From contig JAMCWX010000018.1 of assembly GCA_023480885.1 (NCBI GenBank), forward strand, positions 5,086-69,085: 64,000 nt of DNA, written 5' to 3'. Position numbers and translations under genes: made by a program. Positions 54,502 through 64,000 of the stretch are shown in pieces (position 1 is the first letter of the stretch; every line of letters starts with the position of its first letter). The DNA comes from Chloroflexota bacterium (GTDB lineage Bacteria; Chloroflexota; UBA6077; FW602-bin22; JACPRP01). Below the pieces are notes generated by a model that saw only the letters and a list, made by a program, of their open reading frames with translations, had not been told where the DNA came from and did not search any database.

Positions 54502-55208
54502 TTCTGGCCATAGATACGTCCACCTCCATTTCTACCATCGCACTGTTCGATGTGGACGTGCACGCCGAACTAACGTGGATAGCGGACCAAAAGCACACGA
54601 CTGAGCTACTGCCAGAGATCGGGCGCTTGCTGCAGCGGTGTGGCCTCAAGGCCGACCAGTTGAACGGGATTGTCGTGGCATTGGGGCCAGGGAGCTTCAA
54701 CGGCCTGCGCGTTGGGTTGAGCACCGCGAAAGGCTTATGCCTGGCTCTGAGGATACCGATAGTGGGCGTTGGCACGCTGGAGGCGCTGGCCTACCAATAC
54801 GCGCTGGCGAAGCTTCCAGTCCGACCGATCACCGACGCAGGCAGAGGCGAGCTGAACACGGCGCTGTATGAGATGAGAGATCGTACGTGGGTCGAACTAG
54901 AAGCACCGTGGATTGGCGGCATTGACGAAATCAGGCGTCGGATTTCGGCGCCGACGCTGGTATGCGGCGATACAAGAAAGGAAGCGGTGGTTCATCTGTG
55001 CCACGAGCTTGGCGGGCTTATCACAGAGCCCGCAGCGGCAGGATCGTTGCGACGCGCTGGATATCTGGCCGAGCTTGGCGGCAGGAAGCTGCGCGCAGGG
55101 AAGACTGACGATCTCGCTTCGCTGCAGCCAATATACCTGAGGAAACCAGCGATCACAGGGAGCACGCGGACCGATGCGCTTGCAGTTCGGCACCCCGTTG
55201 GCGGTTAA
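54498..55208 (+). CDS. tsaB: t6A biosynthesis protein TsaB
   Basis: ILAIDTST, GPGSFNGLRVG, DAGRGE, LQPIYLR. Confidence 0.95.
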   Translation: MILAIDTSTSISTIALFDVDVHAELTWIADQKHTTELLPEIGRLLQRCGLKADQLNGIVVALGPGSFNGLRVGLSTAKGLCLALRIPIVGVGTLEALAYQYALAKLPVRPITDAGRGELNTALYEMRDRTWVELEAPWIGGIDEIRRRISAPTLVCGDTRKEAVVHLCHELGGLITEPAAAGSLRRAGYLAELGGRKLRAGKTDDLASLQPIYLRKPAITGSTRTDALAVRHPVGG

Positions 55209-55317
55209 CATAGCAACCAACTTGCAGAAACTGGTCGATCTGGAGGATAATCGAATAGTAGACAGCTGTTCGATGCGCGTTGTGCTTCGAGGTCCAGCGT
55301 GAGGGAGGCAAGAGCGA

Positions 55318-56028
55318 TTGCCGTACATAGTACGACCTATGGAGATCGACGACATACCTGAGGTAACGGCGATTGAGCGGCAGTGCTTCAGCATGCCCTG
55401 GCCGGCTAACGCCTACCGTCGGGAACTGAGAGACAACAGGTTGAGCCGGTATATCGTCGCGGAGTGGGTGGAGAACGAGGAAGCCCGTGAGTGGCAGAAG
55501 AGCGCTCTCGCGCGGAAACAACAACTGCACGAGACAGCGGCCAGGGGAAAATCACCTGTCAGGAGGGCGCTGGAGCATCTTTTTCAAGGGTTGACAAGGC
55601 CAGAACAGGAGCCTCGGACGGTGAAGCTGGCCGGGTACGCGGGGCTCTGGCTGATGCTCGACGAGGCTCACGTGACGACGATCGCAGTCAGGCCGTCTCT
55701 AAGAGGCCAGGGTCTTGGCGAGCTGCTTTTCGTCGGCCTCACAGACCTTGCTATGGCCCTCGGCGCCAGGTACTTGACGCTCGAGGTCAGGGTCAGCAAT
55801 ATTGTGGCTCAAAACCTCTACAAGAAGTACGGGTTCCACGAGGAAGGCATCCGCAAGCGTTATTACAGCGACAACAGCGAAGACGCTTTGATTATGTGGA
55901 GTGAACCGCTGGGGTCAGCTTCCTTCCAGAACAGATTGGCCGACCTGAAATCGGCGCTGAACAAAAAGCTGGCGAAGGCAAAGCCTTTGCGAACAGAACA
56001 GGCAGAAGACAGCACAGCAGCTATGTAG
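55318..56028 (+). CDS. rimI: RimI-like N-acetyltransferase with internal insertion
   Basis: IERQCFSMPW, EAHVTTIAV, RGQGLG, LEVRVSN, RKRYYSDNSEDALIM. Confidence 0.9.
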   Translation: MPYIVRPMEIDDIPEVTAIERQCFSMPWPANAYRRELRDNRLSRYIVAEWVENEEAREWQKSALARKQQLHETAARGKSPVRRALEHLFQGLTRPEQEPRTVKLAGYAGLWLMLDEAHVTTIAVRPSLRGQGLGELLFVGLTDLAMALGARYLTLEVRVSNIVAQNLYKKYGFHEEGIRKRYYSDNSEDALIMWSEPLGSASFQNRLADLKSALNKKLAKAKPLRTEQAEDSTAAM

Positions 56029-56054
56029 TAACAAAACACGGGGCGAGGAGTGGG

Positions 56055-58907
56055 ATGTCTGAACTATTAGTCGTTTTCGATGGCAACGCGTTGCTTCACC
56101 GCGCCTTCCACGCCCTGCCCCCGCTGACCACCTCTAAGGGCGAGCTTGTCAACGCCGTCTACGGCTTCGCCTCGATGCTGCTTAAGGCGATGAACGAGCT
56201 CAAGCCGCGATACGCCGCGGTGACCTTCGACAAGGCAGCGCCCACGTTTCGGCATAAGGAGTTTGAAGAGTACAAGGCGCATCGCCCGAAGGCGCCTGAG
56301 GCCCTGTACGAGCAACTCGAGCGCATCAAACAACTGGTCGAGATACTCAACTTACCTGTTTTCGAAGTCGATGGTTACGAAGCCGACGACGTGCTGGGAA
56401 CGCTGGCAAAGCAGGCATCTGAGCAGCACGTGGAGACGGTAATTGTGACGGGAGACTCTGACGCCCTGCAACTGGTTAGCGAGGACGTCAGGGTGCTCGT
56501 ACCTGGCAAAGTGTTCGCGAACACGATCATCTACGACAAAAAAGCCGTGCGGGAGAAGTACGGGCTGGAGCCGAAGCAACTGGCCGATTTCAAAGGACTG
56601 AAGGGCGACCCCTCGGACAACATTCCCGGCGTGCCGGGCATTGGCGAGAAGACCGCGACGAAACTCTTGAGCCGGTTTGGCTCGGTCGAGGAGGTTTACG
56701 CTCACCTCGACGAGGTGGACAGCAAGACACGTAAGCTTCTCGAAGAGCACCGCGATCAGGCGATGCAGAGCAAGCGGCTCGCAACCATCGTCACCGACGT
56801 GCCCATCGAGCTCGACCTCGACAAGTGTCGCGTCGGGACGTACGACCGCAGCAGAGCCGTCTCGCTATTGCGCGAGCTGGAGTTCCGCAGCCTGTTGGGC
56901 AGATTGCCTGAGCTACGAGTCGAGGCCCGCGCAACACAAGCCGTGCGAACCGAGACAGATGGCTCCGGTTCGCGGGCGGTTCAGATGAATCTCTTTGGCA
57001 CGCTGGGCAACAAGGGAAGCGAACCTACAGCCGTCGACGATCCGCAGGTTACCACTTCGGCTCATTCGCCGTCGGCAGCGGCGACGTGTTCTACAATCTC
57101 GACCAAGGAAGCGCTGGAGGAACTGGTAAGAAGAATTCATCCCGGCTCAGCCATCACATTCGACGTGGAGACGACCCACAAAGACGCGATGCGTGCGGCG
57201 CTCGTAGGCATAGCGATTTCGCTGGATCCAGAGCACGTCTTCTACATTCCGGTCGGCCACAGAGAGACGCTGCAGGGCGATGCAGCGGAGAATATGAGCC
57301 AACTTCCTCTCGATCTTGCTCTGAACACGTTGAGGCACATTTTCGAGGATCCGGCAATCGAGAAGCTCGCCCACAACGGGAAATATGATATCACGGTGCT
57401 CGAACGCAACGGCGTAGTCGTGGCGGGGCTATCGTTCGACACGATGATCGCGGCCTATCTGGTCGACCCGTCTCAGCGAGCGCTGAACTTGAAGGATCTT
57501 GGCTTATCGAAGCTAGGCGTCGAAATGACGCCGATAGAAGCGCTGATTGGCAAGGGGAAGTCACAGATCACGATGGCAGAGGTGCCGATCGAGCTTGCGG
57601 CCAAATACTCCTGCGGCGACGCGGAAGTGACCCATCGACTGGCACAGGTGTTGGAGCCACAGCTCAAGGAGGCTGACCTCTGGAAGCTGTTCGTCGACGT
57701 GGAGATGCCGCTGGTGCCAGTGCTGGCAAAAATGGAGCAGCACGGAGTGGCGATCGACGTCCAATTCCTGCACGGCCTTTCAGCAGAGCTTCACGCAAAA
57801 CTGTTGGAGTTGGAACAGCGCATTCACGATAGCGTGGGCCACAAGTTCAACATCAACAGCACACAGCAACTGGGGAAGATACTCTTCGAGGAGTTGCGAC
57901 TGCCGACGTCGCGACGTACGAAGACGGGCTTCAGCACGGAAGCCGATGTCCTGGAGGATCTGAGAGGCACCCATCCCGTCGTAGAGCTCGTGCTAGAATA
58001 CCGTCAGTTGACGAAGATGAAGTCGACCTACGTCGACGCGCTGCCGTTGATGATCAATCCGCTAACTGGGCGTTTGCACACGTCGTTCAACCAGACGGGA
58101 ACGATTACAGGCAGGCTCAGCTCCAGCGAGCCTAACCTGCAGAACATCCCGATTAGAACCGACCTTGGGCGAAAGGTTCGAGGTGCCTTCACCACCGGCG
58201 AGGCGGAGAGCGTGCTGCTGAGCGCGGACTATTCGCAGGTCGAGCTGCGCATTATGGCCCACATCTCCCAGGATAGACGGCTGCTCGAAGCATTCGCGGC
58301 CGACGAAGACATTCACGCGGCGACGGCGACCGAGATTTTCGGAGTGCCGCTGGACAGGGTAACGGCGCAACAGCGCCGCGTCGCGAAAGTAGTGAATTTT
58401 GGCATTATCTATGGCATTAGCGACTTCGGGCTGGCCGCAGGAGCAGGCTTGTCCAGACGTGATGCCTCCATATACATCGACAAGTACCTGGGTAGATATG
58501 GAGGCGTGAGCAAGTACATCGAGGATACCAAGCGCCAGGCGGAGGAGCGGGGATATGTCACCACGATCCTCGGTCGAAGGCGATACTTGCCAGAGATAAA
58601 CGTGGACCATCGCGTGGCAAGACAGGCAGCCGAGAGGATGGCAATCAACATGCCTATCCAGGGTACGGCAGCAGATATCATCAAGATCGCGATGATCAGA
58701 TTGGACCGGGCGATGACGAAGCGGCGGCTGCGCAGCAAGATGATCCTCCAGGTTCACGACGAGCTGGTGTTCGAAGTGCCCAGGCACGAACTCGAAGAGA
58801 TGCGCGAGCTGGCGATCGAGATAATGGAGAACGCGATGCCGCTGGCCGTGCCGCTGAAAGTGGACGTCAAGGTAGGCGTTAACTGGAACGAGATGGAGGA
58901 ATGCTAG
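56055..58907 (+). CDS. polA: DNA polymerase I
   Basis: 5'-3' exo (DGNALLHR, YEADD, GDPSDNIPG), 3'-5' exo (FDVET, HNGKYD), polymerase (DYSQVELR, QVHDEL). Confidence 0.98.
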   Translation: MSELLVVFDGNALLHRAFHALPPLTTSKGELVNAVYGFASMLLKAMNELKPRYAAVTFDKAAPTFRHKEFEEYKAHRPKAPEALYEQLERIKQLVEILNLPVFEVDGYEADDVLGTLAKQASEQHVETVIVTGDSDALQLVSEDVRVLVPGKVFANTIIYDKKAVREKYGLEPKQLADFKGLKGDPSDNIPGVPGIGEKTATKLLSRFGSVEEVYAHLDEVDSKTRKLLEEHRDQAMQSKRLATIVTDVPIELDLDKCRVGTYDRSRAVSLLRELEFRSLLGRLPELRVEARATQAVRTETDGSGSRAVQMNLFGTLGNKGSEPTAVDDPQVTTSAHSPSAAATCSTISTKEALEELVRRIHPGSAITFDVETTHKDAMRAALVGIAISLDPEHVFYIPVGHRETLQGDAAENMSQLPLDLALNTLRHIFEDPAIEKLAHNGKYDITVLERNGVVVAGLSFDTMIAAYLVDPSQRALNLKDLGLSKLGVEMTPIEALIGKGKSQITMAEVPIELAAKYSCGDAEVTHRLAQVLEPQLKEADLWKLFVDVEMPLVPVLAKMEQHGVAIDVQFLHGLSAELHAKLLELEQRIHDSVGHKFNINSTQQLGKILFEELRLPTSRRTKTGFSTEADVLEDLRGTHPVVELVLEYRQLTKMKSTYVDALPLMINPLTGRLHTSFNQTGTITGRLSSSEPNLQNIPIRTDLGRKVRGAFTTGEAESVLLSADYSQVELRIMAHISQDRRLLEAFAADEDIHAATATEIFGVPLDRVTAQQRRVAKVVNFGIIYGISDFGLAAGAGLSRRDASIYIDKYLGRYGGVSKYIEDTKRQAEERGYVTTILGRRRYLPEINVDHRVARQAAERMAINMPIQGTAADIIKIAMIRLDRAMTKRRLRSKMILQVHDELVFEVPRHELEEMRELAIEIMENAMPLAVPLKVDVKVGVNWNEMEEC

Positions 58908-59786
58908 GTGCCGGAACTGCCCGAGGTACAGACTATCGTGCACGATTTAGGGGCAAAGCTGAATGGGCGGCGATTCGTGGACGTCGACGTTTACTGGCAG
59001 CCTACCATCGCGGAGCCCGAGGCTGAGGCTTTCCGGCGGCAAATGATCGGGGAGGAGATCACGGGGCTGTGGCGCCGCGCCAAGTTTGTCGTAATGGGCC
59101 TCTCAGGTGGCAACAGGCTGGTGATACACCTGCGCATGACAGGTCGGCTGTTGTGGATGGATGCCGAGGCTCCGGCGGACAAGCACACCAGGGTCGTGTT
59201 GCATCTGGACAATGGAAAAGAACTGCGACTGGTGGATACGCGCAAGTTCGCCCGCATCCGTCTTTTGACTCCAGCGGGATTCGAAGCGCTGAGCGCTTCG
59301 CTTGGGATCGAGCCCCTCGGCAAGGAGTTCACCAAGGAGAAGCTCAGGGAAATCGTGCGAGCGCGAGGGCAGAAGATCAAAGCGTTGCTGTTGGACCAGC
59401 GCTACATCGTGGGCCTGGGCAACATTTACGCCGACGAGGCGCTCTTTGTGGCGCGGATACATCCCCTGCGCCCGGCCAACTCGCTGACAGCGGAGGAAAC
59501 GGAGAGGCTCTACAGCGCAATCCAGCGCGTGTTGGAAGCGGGCATAGAAGACAGGGGAACGACGATCGACACTTACCTCGATGCGATGGGAAGGCCAGGC
59601 AGGCATCAGAGCAATCTGAACGTGTATCATCGAACGGGAGAGCCCTGCCTGCGCTGCGGCACGCCGATAGAGCGCATCACCATCGGCGGTCGCAGCACTC
59701 ATTTCTGTCCGCAGTGCCAGCCTATGGCTTCACCAGCTTCCGGAATCTCTCTTCCTTCGCGAAAGGTCCGATCACAGCGAGGTTGA
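58908..59786 (+). CDS. mutM: Formamidopyrimidine-DNA glycosylase
   Basis: PELPEV, HLRMTG, GLGNIYADE, zinc finger CLRC..CPQCQ. Confidence 0.97.
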   Translation: MPELPEVQTIVHDLGAKLNGRRFVDVDVYWQPTIAEPEAEAFRRQMIGEEITGLWRRAKFVVMGLSGGNRLVIHLRMTGRLLWMDAEAPADKHTRVVLHLDNGKELRLVDTRKFARIRLLTPAGFEALSASLGIEPLGKEFTKEKLREIVRARGQKIKALLLDQRYIVGLGNIYADEALFVARIHPLRPANSLTAEETERLYSAIQRVLEAGIEDRGTTIDTYLDAMGRPGRHQSNLNVYHRTGEPCLRCGTPIERITIGGRSTHFCPQCQPMASPASGISLPSRKVRSQRG

Positions 59787-60987
59787 TCCTGTCGTGGACG
59801 AAGATCTCCCTGGCAACGCGATGGAGGTCGGGCACGGAGATGGAATCGATGATCTTCACCACCTCCTGCAAGGTGAAAATACGATCCAGAATCAATTCCT
59901 GGCCGCCAAGCCACGAAGCCACTGAGCGGGTATCCTCAAGCCTTAGCAGGAGGCGGCCTTTCCAGAACTCCTTGGCCTTAGCCACCTCGTATTCAGGCAA
60001 GTTTTCCTTAATTTTGTCGATCTCGCTCAAGGCCGCCTCGATGGTCTTGTCGACGCGCTTTGGATCGACGCCAGCGTAAATGACCGCGGAGCCGGCATCG
60101 CGGTAGTGGTTGATATAAGAGTGCACATCGTAGGCGAGACCGCGCTTCTCTCTGATCTCAAGGAAGAGCCTGGAACTCATGCCCTCGCCCAGCACAACGT
60201 TGAGCAGATCCAGAGCGTAGCGGTCGGGATGGACGTACGAAAGGCCGGGGTAGCCAATGCAAACCTGTGCCTGTTCGGTTTTTCTTTGCTGCAAACGAAC
60301 GCGGGTCTCGCCGGGAGGTATGATCGTGGGCTCACCAGCTAAGACAGGGGCTGCGCGCCATTCTCTGACCAGCGGTTCGAGCGTGTCTACGACCTGGCTA
60401 TGGCTCAAGGGCCCGGCGACGGCGATGACCGCGGCGCCGGGCAGGTAGCGATCGTGCAAGTACTGGAGCATCTGCTCGCGAGTTATGCTGCGAACCGATT
60501 CCTTGGTGCCGGCGATGTCGCGGCCTAAAGGCTGATCCCCCCACATCGTCTCGTCGAAGAGGACGTGCACCCAGTCCTGTGGGGTATCGACAAGCATATT
60601 GAGCTCTTCGACGATCACTTTGCGCTCTTTCTCGATTTCCACTGGATCGAACTGAGAGTGCAGGAGGATGTCGGTGAGCACATCGGCTGCGGTTGGCCAG
60701 TGGTTGTGAGCGACCTTGGCCCAGTAAACGGTGATTTCCTTGCCCGTTTCGGCATTGAGCACGCCGCCGGTGCCCTCCACGGCCTCCGAAATGTCTTTGG
60801 CGGCAGGACGCTTTTGCGTGCCTTTGAACAGCATATGCTCAATGAAATGGGAGATTCCACTGATCTCTCTTGCCTCGTTCCTCGACCCGGCGCTAAAGAA
60901 GATGGCCACGCTAACGGAGAGAGCATAGGGCATCTGAGAGGTGACTACTCGCAAGCCGTTATCCAGGACCGTCTTTTCGTACTCCAT
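59722..60987 (-). CDS. M16-family zinc peptidase
   Basis: HFIEHMLFKGT (HxxEH), SSRLFLEIREKRGLAY. Confidence 0.93.
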   Translation of the reverse strand: MEYEKTVLDNGLRVVTSQMPYALSVSVAIFFSAGSRNEAREISGISHFIEHMLFKGTQKRPAAKDISEAVEGTGGVLNAETGKEITVYWAKVAHNHWPTAADVLTDILLHSQFDPVEIEKERKVIVEELNMLVDTPQDWVHVLFDETMWGDQPLGRDIAGTKESVRSITREQMLQYLHDRYLPGAAVIAVAGPLSHSQVVDTLEPLVREWRAAPVLAGEPTIIPPGETRVRLQQRKTEQAQVCIGYPGLSYVHPDRYALDLLNVVLGEGMSSRLFLEIREKRGLAYDVHSYINHYRDAGSAVIYAGVDPKRVDKTIEAALSEIDKIKENLPEYEVAKAKEFWKGRLLLRLEDTRSVASWLGGQELILDRIFTLQEVVKIIDSISVPDLHRVAREIFVHDRINLAVIGPFAKEERFRKLVKP

Positions 60988-61236
60988 GGGCCTCCTACAC
61001 CTGCACAGAATCAGTGCTGCTCGCACAGGAGCAGCAATCGGCGGCGCTTAATCCCAATGATAGCACGGAAATGGCCAAAAATCTAGCAAGCGTGCCAGTT
61101 AGTCAAGGCTGTTGACGTCTGCTTGTGCGCACGCAAAACAAGCTATCCAACATGGCCTCCTTCTGCCACTTGCCCTGTTCTCGTTTATCTCGTCCAAGAT
61201 AACAACATTGAAAGGCAGGCTGGAAGCTGTACCCTA

Positions 61237-61265
61237 TTGATTTTTGCTTTTTGTTCATATATACT
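61237..61265 (+). promoter_or_regulatory. Promoter of the zinc-ribbon gene
   Basis: TTGATT-17-TATACT. Confidence 0.65.
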
Positions 61266-61403
61266 GCGCGCGGTGGTACACGTTTAGGATACTACGGTCA
61301 GCAGCGAACCAGCCCTCCGGCGCTGAAGGGCACCACGGCGATCCTAACGCACGGCGCTTGCCCCGACTAAACTGTGACCAACTATCACAAGAGGAGGTCA
61401 AAG

Positions 61404-61700
61404 GTGGAGTTCAAGGACAAGACCCTAACTTGCCGAGAATGCGGTGTTAACTTCGTTTTCACCGCTGGCGAGCAAGGGTTCTACCAAGAGAAGGGACTCC
61501 TTAACGAGCCGCAGCGCTGTCCTGCTTGCCGTGCAGTCAGGCGGCGCGAACGCTCTGGTGCTGCGCCGCGCGAGATGCATCCCGTCGTCTGCGCTGAGTG
61601 CGGTACAAGCACCACGGTTCCCTTCCTACCGCGGAACGATCGACCTGTCTACTGCAGCTCTTGCTACGACAAGGTTCGCCTTGCGGGCAACGTAGGCTAG
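61404..61700 (+). CDS. Double zinc-ribbon protein (zf-trcl plus CxxC-x17-CxxC)
   Basis: FKDKTLTCRECG..FVFTAGEQ..P.RCPACR; VCAECG..VPF.P..RPVYCSSC; SD GAGGAGG, GTG start. Confidence 0.9.
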   Translation: MEFKDKTLTCRECGVNFVFTAGEQGFYQEKGLLNEPQRCPACRAVRRRERSGAAPREMHPVVCAECGTSTTVPFLPRNDRPVYCSSCYDKVRLAGNVG

Positions 61701-61770
61701 TGGCGGATGGGAGGACGATCCGGGGGAACCCGTTAGGGGTCAGCGTCTTGCGCTGAAACCGCAGCCCTCA

Positions 61771-61802
61771 GAGCCGGGAGAATATCCCGGCTTCACTTTT
61801 TT
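61771..61802 (+). terminator. Intrinsic terminator
   Basis: gagccggga-gaata-tcccggctt followed by a T tract. Confidence 0.75.
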
Positions 61803-61906
61803 CGAGTTGCTGCGCTATGGTACAAAAATGCGCTGAACCGCAAAGAGCGCAAAGATCGCAGTGGACAACAGGACACCAACCACCAACGAAAACCTCAAAT
61901 TGTTCA

Positions 61907-61935
61907 TTGACATAGGCACATGTTTAATGTATACT
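61907..61935 (+). promoter_or_regulatory. Near-consensus promoter with no adjacent ORF
   Basis: TTGACA-17-TATACT. Confidence 0.75.
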
Positions 61936-61940
61936 TGGGG

Positions 61941-62058
61941 AAAATAAAGGCAGGGCGCGAGGCTGGGCGTCGGTAGACGCCGAACGGGAATCCCGCGATG
62001 AGCGGAGAGGTGAGGTAAAATCGAGTGCGATTGTGTAGCGTCCAGTCTTTATTTTTTT
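61941..62058 (+). ncRNA. Candidate stand-alone small structured RNA (~118 nt), family unknown
   Basis: Starts 6 nt after the -10 box; 5' aaaataaaggcagggcgc pairs with 3' gcgtccagtctttatttt; three internal hairpins; ends in T7. Confidence 0.6.
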
Positions 62059-62203
62059 GTTTCTGCCTTCAGGCCAACGGCCGGCAATCTCTCGGCAGCA
62101 GATAGGCGCGTTCAGCGTTAGAACAAACTTCCTTCGACGTGCGGCTTGATTTGCCACAAAGCTAAGGTATACAATAATTCTAGCAGCACAGTGGCGGTGG
62201 CAG

Positions 62204-62647
62204 ATGAAAAAGTACGAGCGTGAGATAGCCGATCTACTGGACAAAATGGACAAGTTCATTCCGGACGAGTCCCCCAGCCACCGCGCCAGGAGGAGCTTCG
62301 ACCGCTACATTCGTCGCGCTATGAGCGCAATTCCGTCCTGGAGCACAATCGCATCCTGGGACATCACCCCAACGTCTTTGATGGTAGCCAGCATCGCATT
62401 TGCTTTTGCGGCGGCCCTTCTCAGTAGCATACTTCGCCCTGCTGCACCTCTCGCGAGCATCGCCAGCGTAGCCTTGCTGCTGGCGGCAATTATCTTACAA
62501 GCGTTGGGCCGGCGAAGGCGGCCAGAACGACGCTGGCGCGGACGCGTAATAGATCTGGACGACTACCGAAGAACCTCTGCTTTCGGTTTAGGCTATCGGT
62601 GGCGTATGGTCTGGAACAGGTTCTGGCGCGGACGCAAGAAGTACTGA
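62204..62647 (+). CDS. Hypothetical membrane protein (2 TM)
   Basis: KYEREIADLL N-terminus, two hydrophobic helices, RRWRGRVIDL; promoter-like TTGATT-18-TACAAT upstream. Confidence 0.65.
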   Translation: MKKYEREIADLLDKMDKFIPDESPSHRARRSFDRYIRRAMSAIPSWSTIASWDITPTSLMVASIAFAFAAALLSSILRPAAPLASIASVALLLAAIILQALGRRRRPERRWRGRVIDLDDYRRTSAFGLGYRWRMVWNRFWRGRKKY

Positions 62648-62660
62648 TGTGGAGTGACGA

Positions 62661-63029
62661 ATGAAAGGCGTGCTCAGATGGTTTGCTGTCTTTGCAGCTT
62701 CCTTTTTGGTAGCCAAACTGGTCGAGAGCCTGTTAACTTCGAAGCAGGGCAGGAGACTCGCCGAGTCCACCGGCTCGGCTGTCTTTCTTAGCGAAGAGGG
62801 CAGAAACGTCGTTAGCAGGTACTCTAAAGAAGCAACTGGCGTGATTCTTGACGCTCTGCTAAGCCGCCAAGAACGGCGGGCTTTGGCCAACGGCTCGGCG
62901 TCCCATTGGCCAAACCTGTTCGAAGATGCCGCGACGACGATGTCGGCCACGGGATCCCTGCTGCGAATCGTGGCCGATCTTTGGCGCGAACGACAGGAAC
63001 TAGGCAGGAGCCAGCCCCGCGCAGGCTAA
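62661..63029 (+). CDS. Hypothetical protein
   Basis: SD GGAG, follows the previous gene by 13 nt. Confidence 0.55.
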   Translation: MKGVLRWFAVFAASFLVAKLVESLLTSKQGRRLAESTGSAVFLSEEGRNVVSRYSKEATGVILDALLSRQERRALANGSASHWPNLFEDAATTMSATGSLLRIVADLWRERQELGRSQPRAG

Positions 63030-63062
63030 AGCCCAATGCGGTTTACTTGAGGGCCAAGGCTT

Positions 63063-63122
63063 CACCACGGAGACACGGAGGCTATTTGAGGTAGGCTCCG
63101 TGTTCTCGGTGCCTCCGTGGTT
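63063..63122. repeat. Family C palindromic element between convergent genes
   Basis: caccacggagacacggag ... ctccgtgttctcggtgcctccgtggtt. Confidence 0.8.
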
Positions 63123-63138
63123 ACTTCTCCGCGCCTGG

Positions 63139-64000
63139 CTAGCGTCCTGGCAATATGAGCGACATTGCGGAGAAGTTAACGCCCTCTGAGGTGGTCCATG
63201 CCTGCATTAGGCGCTGCTGGCTCATCGTCCTATACGCGCCAACGGTGTTGCCCTGGAAGGCAGGATCGTGGTAGATCACGTTGCCGTCGGCGTCGAGGCC
63301 CAGAAACACGATATAGTGATCTCCCCACCAACTGCTTCGCTCGTGGCCTGGCAGGCTTCGGTAGCGCACTAGCAGCATCGTCGGGTGTCCACCGCGAATT
63401 TCCTGCCTCAGGTCGTCAATCGTCCACTTTCGGTACTGCTTCGGGCCTGAGTAAGGGCCACTCACCTGAAAGCCACGCTTCTCGGCCGCGTAGACCAGCG
63501 ATTTCCAGTCTGATCCACCATCAAGTCCCCAGTAGCCTGTGCTCTGATTTACCAGGCGCCGCAGGTCGTCAGTCGACCAGTTTTTCTCGTAATAGGCCAT
63601 GAGCATCCCAAGAACGGCAGGACCGCAGTTACCTTCCTCGTAGGCAGTGCCGTCGAACTGGCTGCGATAAGGCACCTGCATGCTCGATTCCTGCCCGACG
63701 TTCGCGTCCTGGTCCCCTGGAGCAGGGGAGGAACCGCTGGCATCTGGCATCCTGAGCGCCTGCCCCGGCATCAGCTTATCTGGGTCCGCAAGCCCGTTGA
63801 GCCTGGCCAGATCATCAACAGTGACGCTGTGGCTGCGCGCAATGGCCATCAGCGTATCGCCAGGTGCCACGACGTGCTGCTTGTGATCGCTGGCCTGCGG
63901 AGCAGGCTGCGAACTACTTTGGACGAGCACCAGCTTTTGTCCAACTCTTAGGAAGTCTGGCGATCTCAAGCCGTTCAGCCGAACCAGCGTGTCGACGCTA
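63139..64000 (-). CDS. LysM-repeat protein with C39-like cysteine peptidase domain (5' end outside the window)
   Basis: HVVAPGDTLMAIA LysM; VPYRSQ, NCGPA, DHYIV, HDP; frame open to the window edge. Confidence 0.85.
   Translation of the reverse strand, partial: SVDTLVRLNGLRSPDFLRVGQKLVLVQSSSQPAPQASDHKQHVVAPGDTLMAIARSHSVTVDDLARLNGLADPDKLMPGQALRMPDASGSSPAPGDQDANVGQESSMQVPYRSQFDGTAYEEGNCGPAVLGMLMAYYEKNWSTDDLRRLVNQSTGYWGLDGGSDWKSLVYAAEKRGFQVSGPYSGPKQYRKWTIDDLRQEIRGGHPTMLLVRYRSLPGHERSSWWGDHYIVFLGLDADGNVIYHDPAFQGNTVGAYRTMSQQRLMQAWTTSEGVNFSAMSLILPGR

Follow-up and report, generated by a model that had tools for sequence, protein, structure and literature searches.

A candidate stand-alone gene for a small structured RNA with a conserved four-way junction in uncultured Chloroflexota

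The stretch of DNA analysed here (the window) comprises 64,000 nucleotides (nt) from contig C69 of a Chloroflexota assembly, G000 (3.09 Mb in 76 contigs, 88.7% complete). At 61941-62058 of its forward strand lies an element that, judged from its sequence and that of its relatives, is a new family within a known kind, the stand-alone structured bacterial noncoding RNAs (ncRNAs) without assigned function. Chance is far from sufficient to account for the element, since 88 further loci conserve it and show compensatory changes. The reading that we prefer, and in which we place about even confidence, is that of a stand-alone gene for a small, trans-acting structured RNA of an uncatalogued family, whose invariant junction would dock a specific partner.

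The predicted transcription unit begins with a sigma-70-type promoter at 61907-61935 (+ strand, like all parts of the element given below), in which the -35 box TTGACA (61907-61912) and the -10 box TATACT (61930-61935) are separated by a 17-nt spacer; it scored 11/12 in a promoter scan, confirming what an earlier note, made from the letters of the window, had described. That note placed the start of the RNA segment 6 nt after the -10 box: the A-run at 61941 is indeed there, but the gap consists of the five bases TGGGG (61936-61940), not of six. From the promoter spacing, transcription is predicted to start at about 61941, and in the window's lineage a run of seven T residues (T7, 62052-62058) directly after the closing helix P1 would end a primary transcript of about 118 nt (61941-62058), with P1 probably doubling as the terminator stem. 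In most other lineages transcription would instead stop 30-45 nt later, at a terminator hairpin distinct from P1, and the transcript would measure about 150-165 nt.

RNAfold reproduced the four-way junction proposed in the earlier note, with a free energy of -46.1 kcal/mol against a shuffle mean of -33.6 (z = -3.73; 1 of 200 shuffles was as good); the opposite strand of the element also folds well (z = -3.99). P1 is an 18-position pairing of its 5' strand (61941-61958) with 62038-62055, the 3' strand running on into the T7 (62038-62058). Within it, 61952/62044 is an A-A mismatch, and 61950/62046 and 61955/62041 are G-U pairs, in line with the earlier description; the three internal hairpins and the T7 lie where the note had put them. 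Reading from P1 inwards, the first junction strand, J1/2 (61959-61965, GAGGCUG), is invariant in all 15 genomes found by BLAST and also in alignment A3, where it is partly fixed by the search pattern. It leads into the P2 hairpin GGCGTC-GGTA-GACGCC (61966-61981), a 6-base-pair (bp) stem of almost invariant sequence with a variable loop, mostly a GNNA tetraloop. J2/3 (61982-61992) has an invariant A.GGGA core in the alignments and differs in the divergent member G248, and the P3 hairpin CCGC-GATGA-GCGG (61993-62005) varies in length among homologues. The purine-rich J3/4 (62006-62018) carries a GAGGUAA that is invariant in the alignments; it is followed by the 5-bp P4 hairpin AATCG-AGTG-CGATT (62019-62032), whose tetraloop ends in an invariant G, and by J4/1 (62033-62037, GUGUA), nearly invariant in the alignments. 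Together the four strands (7, 11, 13 and 5 nt) form about 36 nearly invariant, purine-rich nucleotides. Guanines are very frequent in the junction, whose four GG tracts are invariant and kept even in G248, the most divergent member.

Covariation was assessed in several alignments. RNAalifold, applied to a plain MAFFT alignment of 15 genomes with 48-50 invariant columns, gave 29 pairs, 16 of them with compensatory changes. When 76 distinct sequences were aligned to the covariance model (CM), 94.1% of cells were paired, against 81.6% for shuffled sequences and 34-56% when the partners were slid. Two-sided changes were found in 17 of the 29 pairs (all 10 outer pairs of P1, 3 of 4 in P3 and 2 of 5 in P4), with examples in P3 (C-G in 42 sequences, U-A in 33) and in P4 (U-A in 57, C-G in 11, G-C in 8). 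The P2 stem shows a compensatory change from C-G to U-A in G248.

A check independent of the model, in which 70 distinct sequences were aligned with MAFFT and folded with RNAalifold, recovers P2, P3 and P4. Its paired cells hold 98 G-U and 1 A-C combinations, and the + strand is therefore fixed. This alignment missed P1, and RNAalifold offered instead a pairing of GCUG in J1/2 with UAGC, comprising four invariant pairs that are broken in G248; as the pair next to these shows covariation, we retained the P1 model. An alignment-free comparison of the 18-nt flanks supports P1: the median pairing energy was -16.4 kcal/mol for cognate flanks and -9.1 for non-cognate ones, of which 7.4% reached the cognate median. 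Finally, the length of the core ranges from 79 to 95 nt across loci and the insertions and deletions in P3 are not multiples of three, which argues against coding, also for the overlapping antisense open reading frame.

The signals for transcription recur with the core. Of 76 distinct loci, 74 have a sigma-70-like promoter (at least 8/12) at a constant spacing, compared with 21 of 333 control windows; its -35 box begins with TTGAC in 69 of the 76, and the predicted start falls at the base of P1. Of 73 loci, 57 have a terminator, counted as a hairpin of -12 kcal/mol or lower plus a T-rich tail within 140 nt, whereas 15 of 205 controls do. The T-rich tail mostly starts 50-69 nt after the core, and the hairpins begin 10-15 nt past P1 and do not overlap it. 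No alternative pairing conserved across lineages, as in a riboswitch expression platform, was found. An antiterminator was considered for genus g31 (genus and family labels are our own), where the 3' half of the terminator resembles J2/3 (CAGAUGGG); the other lineages show no such relation, and a riboswitch platform was not adopted. As a separate observation, the g31-type loci (L053, at about 2935-2965; L050, L057, L058 and L066) share a conserved promoter spacer (TTGACTCGAACCGTTTTGCA...) and a conserved terminator sequence, again with the J2/3-like 3' half, which could represent an operator site or a lineage-specific regulation.

BLAST against 60 relatives found the central ~95 nt of the element in 14 of them at 73-85% identity (E from 1e-35 to 1e-6), a range that also describes the 80-nt interior across families; the remaining matches were short and at chance level. 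The covariance model (R1) scores the element at 105.9 bits, and the element occurs once in the window's genome. R1 detected the RNA in 2 of 27 genomes of the window's order and in 15 of 66 of its class, with strong matches of 99.7-125.8 bits, distributed over families f1 (2/2), f13 (5/5), f14 (6/11), f16 (1/10) and f18 (1/1), with 13 other families empty. The tallies for the 60 relatives, the order and the class include two unpublished genomes, G019 and G064, both lacking the RNA; nothing else depends on them. Outside the window's class, R1 gave nothing convincing among 151 genomes drawn evenly from the phylum.

A pattern of three invariant motifs was then applied to one genome per species across all prokaryotes and gave 20 matches, 19 of them real. 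All 19 come from uncultured Chloroflexota, according to record titles or placement with genome tools, and five fall in a second class of the phylum. There, the CM finds the RNA in 4 of 4 genomes of one order and, in a 151-genome sample of the class, gives six strong matches (85.5-106 bits) besides the divergent G248 (50.8 bits). Metagenome contigs searched with the same pattern yielded 73 matches, 69 real, and viral contigs none. The whole family amounts to 89 true loci, 77 of them distinct, with one match per positive genome, so that the word 'orphan' used in the earlier note has to be given up for a family of ~90 members in two Chloroflexota classes. Weak CM matches in G062 (22.8 bits), G180 (27.1) and G226 (24) lack the conserved core and were rejected by eye. 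The pattern matches L060 among genomes and L073, L105, L134 (with the L060 sequence) and L136 among metagenomes were considered chance, having neither structure nor CM match; these chance loci were removed from the promoter, terminator and flank-pairing counts and retained in the flanking-gene and cca tallies, where the four metagenome ones have no cca match.

The distribution is patchy. Genus g31 carries the RNA in 5 of 9 genomes, and family f16 has one positive and nine negative genomes. Since close relatives within one genus lack it, the RNA is accessory and not essential. We also observed that two records with the RNA, L051 (the G030 contig) and L052 (the G050 contig), are titled 'Sphingomonadaceae bacterium' and 'Proteobacteria bacterium' and are placed in the window's Chloroflexota class; the titles of these metagenome-assembled genomes (MAGs) look mislabelled.

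Comparison with catalogued RNAs did not identify the family. Rfam 15, searched over window positions 55000-64000 at E <= 1, had no match on the element, and a search of 61930-62070 at E <= 10 returned only short hairpin models at 13.7-15.1 bits, far under their cut-offs. With no match at gathering score, the failure of the earlier note to recognise a known RNA class was borne out. Among nine relatives, one matched PrrB_RsmZ at 25 bits against a cut-off of 44 bits; the window copy was unmatched, and no other Rfam family was found in the nine. Full-text searches and a passage of 10.64898/2026.10.21.760802 contained no description of this RNA, bioRxiv supplements being outside their scope. Taken together, the promoter in 74 of 76 loci, the covariation, the lack of an Rfam 15 match and the unrelated or convergent downstream genes support the proposal that the element would be an independently transcribed, possibly undescribed small RNA (sRNA).

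Several well-known RNAs were considered for the element by searching its genome. A signal recognition particle (SRP) RNA was rejected: the genome has a large-type SRP RNA at C73:20601-20779 (96.2 bits), the small-SRP model has no match in G000, and the element is also absent from most genomes of the class. RNase P RNA is likewise encoded elsewhere (C50:18558-18968, 321.4 bits). The 6S RNA model RF00013 has no match anywhere in G000, so that any 6S RNA of this genome must have been left out of the assembly or have diverged beyond detection. The element shares with 6S RNA a small size, a probable abundance, a stand-alone gene, a strong promoter and paired ends. However, 6S RNA is a ~180-nt rod with a large central bubble, and the element is a four-way junction with a P3 of 4-12 bp, patchy within genera and unmatched by RF00013.

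Two further classes have a characteristic protein; all gene absences reported for G000 carry the caveat of its 88.7% completeness. Like CsrB/RsmZ-type sRNAs, the element has several unpaired GGA/GAGG segments and a terminator, but its GGA motifs lie in the junction strands of a rigid fold and not in repeated hairpin loops, and CsrA (PF02599) was not found in G000 in a search whose positive controls matched. As in Y RNA and YrlA with their protein Ro (Rsr), the ends form a long closing helix round a branched module, and an RNA end-processing gene (cca) adjoins it in some lineages. In contrast, the P1 sequence varies freely, so that a Ro-binding site is lacking, the loops do not resemble tRNA, Rfam gives no match, and Ro/TROVE (PF05731) was not found in G000.

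The closest likenesses, in kind and not in sequence, are to Y RNA, RsmZ-type sponges, four-way-junction aptamers and the orphan stand-alone structured bacterial ncRNAs discovered by comparative genomics, such as the raiA motif RNA, OLE, ROOL and GOLLD. The element has in common with these orphan ncRNAs the stand-alone gene, the multi-helix junction, near-invariant unpaired nucleotides and the lack of a consistent gene association and of an assigned function; it differs by a much smaller core (about 80 nt), a confinement to few uncultured Chloroflexota lineages and the lack of a match to any of them in Rfam 15. They are named here from general background together with the abstract of PMC12968392.

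Mechanistically, the RNA would be made from its own strong promoter, fold into the P1-closed junction and be released at P1 and its U-run or at the separate terminator. The peripheral loops and the lengths of P1 and P3 would then be free to drift around a frozen junction and P2. This contrast would place the function in a precise tertiary core, and the invariant junction would form this compact core and offer a docking site for a cellular partner in trans. As to the partner, we lean, with slightly less than even confidence, to a protein, in a ribonucleoprotein or with a sequestration role. A small ligand or a metal ion appears distinctly less probable, and we attach only a low and similar likelihood to each of catalysis, base-pairing and some other function.

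A number of points weigh against a trans-acting RNA with a docking partner. Junctions that hardly vary at all are no less characteristic of RNAs that bind ligands or act as catalysts than of those that bind proteins. Of the protein partners considered in G000, namely CsrA, Ro/TROVE, Hfq (PF17209) and the L7Ae family (PF01248), none was found, and inspection by eye placed no consensus K-turn in the junction. Because alignment A3 was fitted to the model, it is biased towards the structure that the model assumes. Furthermore, 24 positions are fixed by the pattern used to collect the loci, so that much of the invariance over the 89 loci is forced, and the part free of this bias consists only of the 15 genomes found by BLAST or CM together with G206 and G248. 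Lastly, the expression, ends and abundance of the RNA are all inferred, since no transcript was observed; a search for RNA runs with the sequence listed none, and three metatranscriptome runs of the same study contain next to none of the element's sequence words and no contig that aligns to 61700-62300, which has no bearing either way.

The most serious alternative, which we nevertheless consider rather unlikely, is that a stand-alone RNA carries, in its conserved junction, an aptamer for a ligand or a metal or else the catalytic core of a ribozyme. An invariant junction with a variable periphery is the pattern of riboswitch aptamers and small ribozymes, and it describes the element, whose 36 or so junction nucleotides are nearly invariant around loops and helices that vary in length; the junction is G-rich with its four invariant GG tracts, and a P1-closed four-way junction followed by a terminator resembles the architecture of an aptamer. 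The SAM-I, NiCo (czcD) and Mn2+ (yybP-ykoY) aptamers, by general resemblance, share this plan: a P1-closed four-way junction of ~80-120 nt with an invariant junction and variable loops, then an intrinsic terminator. Against this, no known aptamer or ribozyme family was matched and no gene association names a ligand; unlike those aptamers, the element has no Rfam match and no conserved class of downstream genes, its terminator does not overlap P1, and many of the downstream genes are convergent. A more specific proposal along these lines, which we regard as unlikely, is that the G-rich junction constitutes a new RNA fold with its own chemistry, either a ribozyme or a ligand or metal sensor on a trans-acting RNA. 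Because the four GG tracts are kept even in the most divergent member, its core may be built round stacked G-quartets or a metal cluster on guanine N7 positions, with P2 and P3 emerging from the loops.

That the element is instead a base-pairing sRNA, using the purine-rich J3/4 (13 nt, GAGGUAA) as a seed against pyrimidine-rich targets, seems quite improbable to us. The stand-alone cassette of promoter and terminator and the 13-nt conserved unpaired segment would suit such a regulator. Yet conservation extends over all four junction strands and a whole stem and not over one seed, and Hfq is among the genes not found in G000; a target search is underpowered, because a 9-mer has an estimated >100 chance sites in 3 Mb.

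A link to the CCA-adding enzyme, with the RNA as end-repair or quality-control partner or as substrate, was suggested by analogy with the Y RNAs found beside RNA-repair genes, and we hold it to be very doubtful. The only recurrent neighbour is a gene of the cca type (with a PolyA_pol head, an RNA-binding domain and an HD domain): 32 of the 89 loci, from three GTDB families, have it at a distance of up to about 2 kb, upstream in tandem in 24 loci and downstream and convergent in 8; in addition, the four g31 genomes negative for the RNA also lack a PF01743 gene. However, cca is an ordinary gene that 54 of the 66 genomes of the class have, in single copy and irrespective of the RNA, the RNA lies far from it in f1, f13 and the second class, and a joint loss by one deletion is expected for neighbours. 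Nothing tRNA-like was detected in the element (L001) by ARAGORN, and the genome has no detectable Ro gene. A CM search with filters off over 18 cca regions of RNA-negative genomes revealed no diverged copy of the RNA (best score 13.5 bits). We treat the association as a weak lead, because one small inversion links both arrangements and inherited adjacency suffices to explain it.

A cis-acting riboswitch or leader for the downstream gene has been largely refuted by the gene context and is highly unlikely. Such a reading would be consistent with the aptamer-like architecture followed by a terminator, and with a same-strand gene that starts 146 nt downstream in the window and has comparable spacing in the sister genome G001. 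That gene (62204-62647, +) encodes a 147-amino-acid (aa) protein with two transmembrane segments. However, it has promoter-like sites of its own at 62146-62175 and 62151-62178 (promoter scan), which agree with the separate promoter that the earlier note had attributed to it. Moreover, the downstream genes are not homologous between lineages: no homologue of the 147-aa protein lies downstream of the RNA in other lineages, where we found a ~166-aa secreted protein followed by a methyltransferase-glycosyltransferase fusion (g31), an FmdB-type zinc ribbon followed by PlsX (f13), and an isocitrate-dehydrogenase-like (Iso_dh)/cupin fusion (second class). At least five contexts are convergent, with Pfam-confirmed downstream genes that include cca, a PMT_2 protein and a PrsW protease. 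Since the flanking genes differ between lineages and are often convergent, and since P1 meets no competition from the terminator hairpins, which are located past it, we take the element as a stand-alone gene.

An elaborate bidirectional terminator or a chance structure without RNA function, as hinted by the A-run and T-run flanking a stable structure that also folds on the minus strand, can be dismissed in view of the conserved 80-nt interior with its compensatory changes across families, the conserved dedicated promoter and G-U pairs that suit one strand only.

Soil, groundwater, hot springs and mine drainage are rich in Chloroflexota, most of which are uncultured, and to our knowledge their RNA biology is almost blank. 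With helices that covary and a dedicated promoter and terminator, the family described here is clearly real. Its junction is more strictly conserved than those of many riboswitch aptamers, and the compact core of ~80 nt is a tractable candidate for a new RNA-protein complex, ligand-binding fold or ribozyme that can be transcribed and probed in vitro without culturing a host. The covariance model built here allows the gene to be annotated in MAGs. The RNA marks a trait gained or lost between close relatives, which might serve to find the partner by phylogenetic profiling.

Regarding the surroundings of the element in the window, the upstream neighbour (61374-61700, +) encodes a 108-aa double treble-clef zinc-finger protein (Pfam zf_Tbcl, 6.3e-22; zf_Tbcl_2, 1.2e-19), which has its own terminator-like site at 61771-61793 in a terminator scan and occupies the same position in four loci of the window's lineage (L001, L002, L116 and L129). 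The downstream 147-aa protein is conserved in the sister genome G001 and has only sub-threshold Pfam matches, to DUF4231 and SLATT_3, which we take to be effector-type two-transmembrane domains. Across lineages no unknown flanking protein was common, and a tRNA gene adjoins the RNA in 3 of 95 loci. Elsewhere in the window, a match to the mir-15_2 model at 63829-63881 (- strand), inside a LysM/C39-peptidase gene, reaches 24.4 bits against a cut-off of 80; it is at chance level and has no significance.

Three minor observations concern neighbouring genes in other genomes. In five of the nine g31 genomes (G052, G044, G061, G057 and G037; 57-93% complete) no PF01743 gene was found, and therefore no recognisable CCA-adding enzyme; four of the five are also without the RNA. 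In the f13-type loci (L054, L067 and L075), a gene for a ~82-aa FmdB-type CxxC zinc ribbon lies between the RNA and plsX, at +130 to +490 past the RNA, with a conserved intergenic stretch before it. Beside cca in L155 (G003:C31, at about 2755-2894), there are two or more copies of a short palindrome (GTGCAGAGGGGAAACCCCTCTGC-like) spaced by about 115 nt, possibly a repeat element or else a small array of CRISPR-like type.
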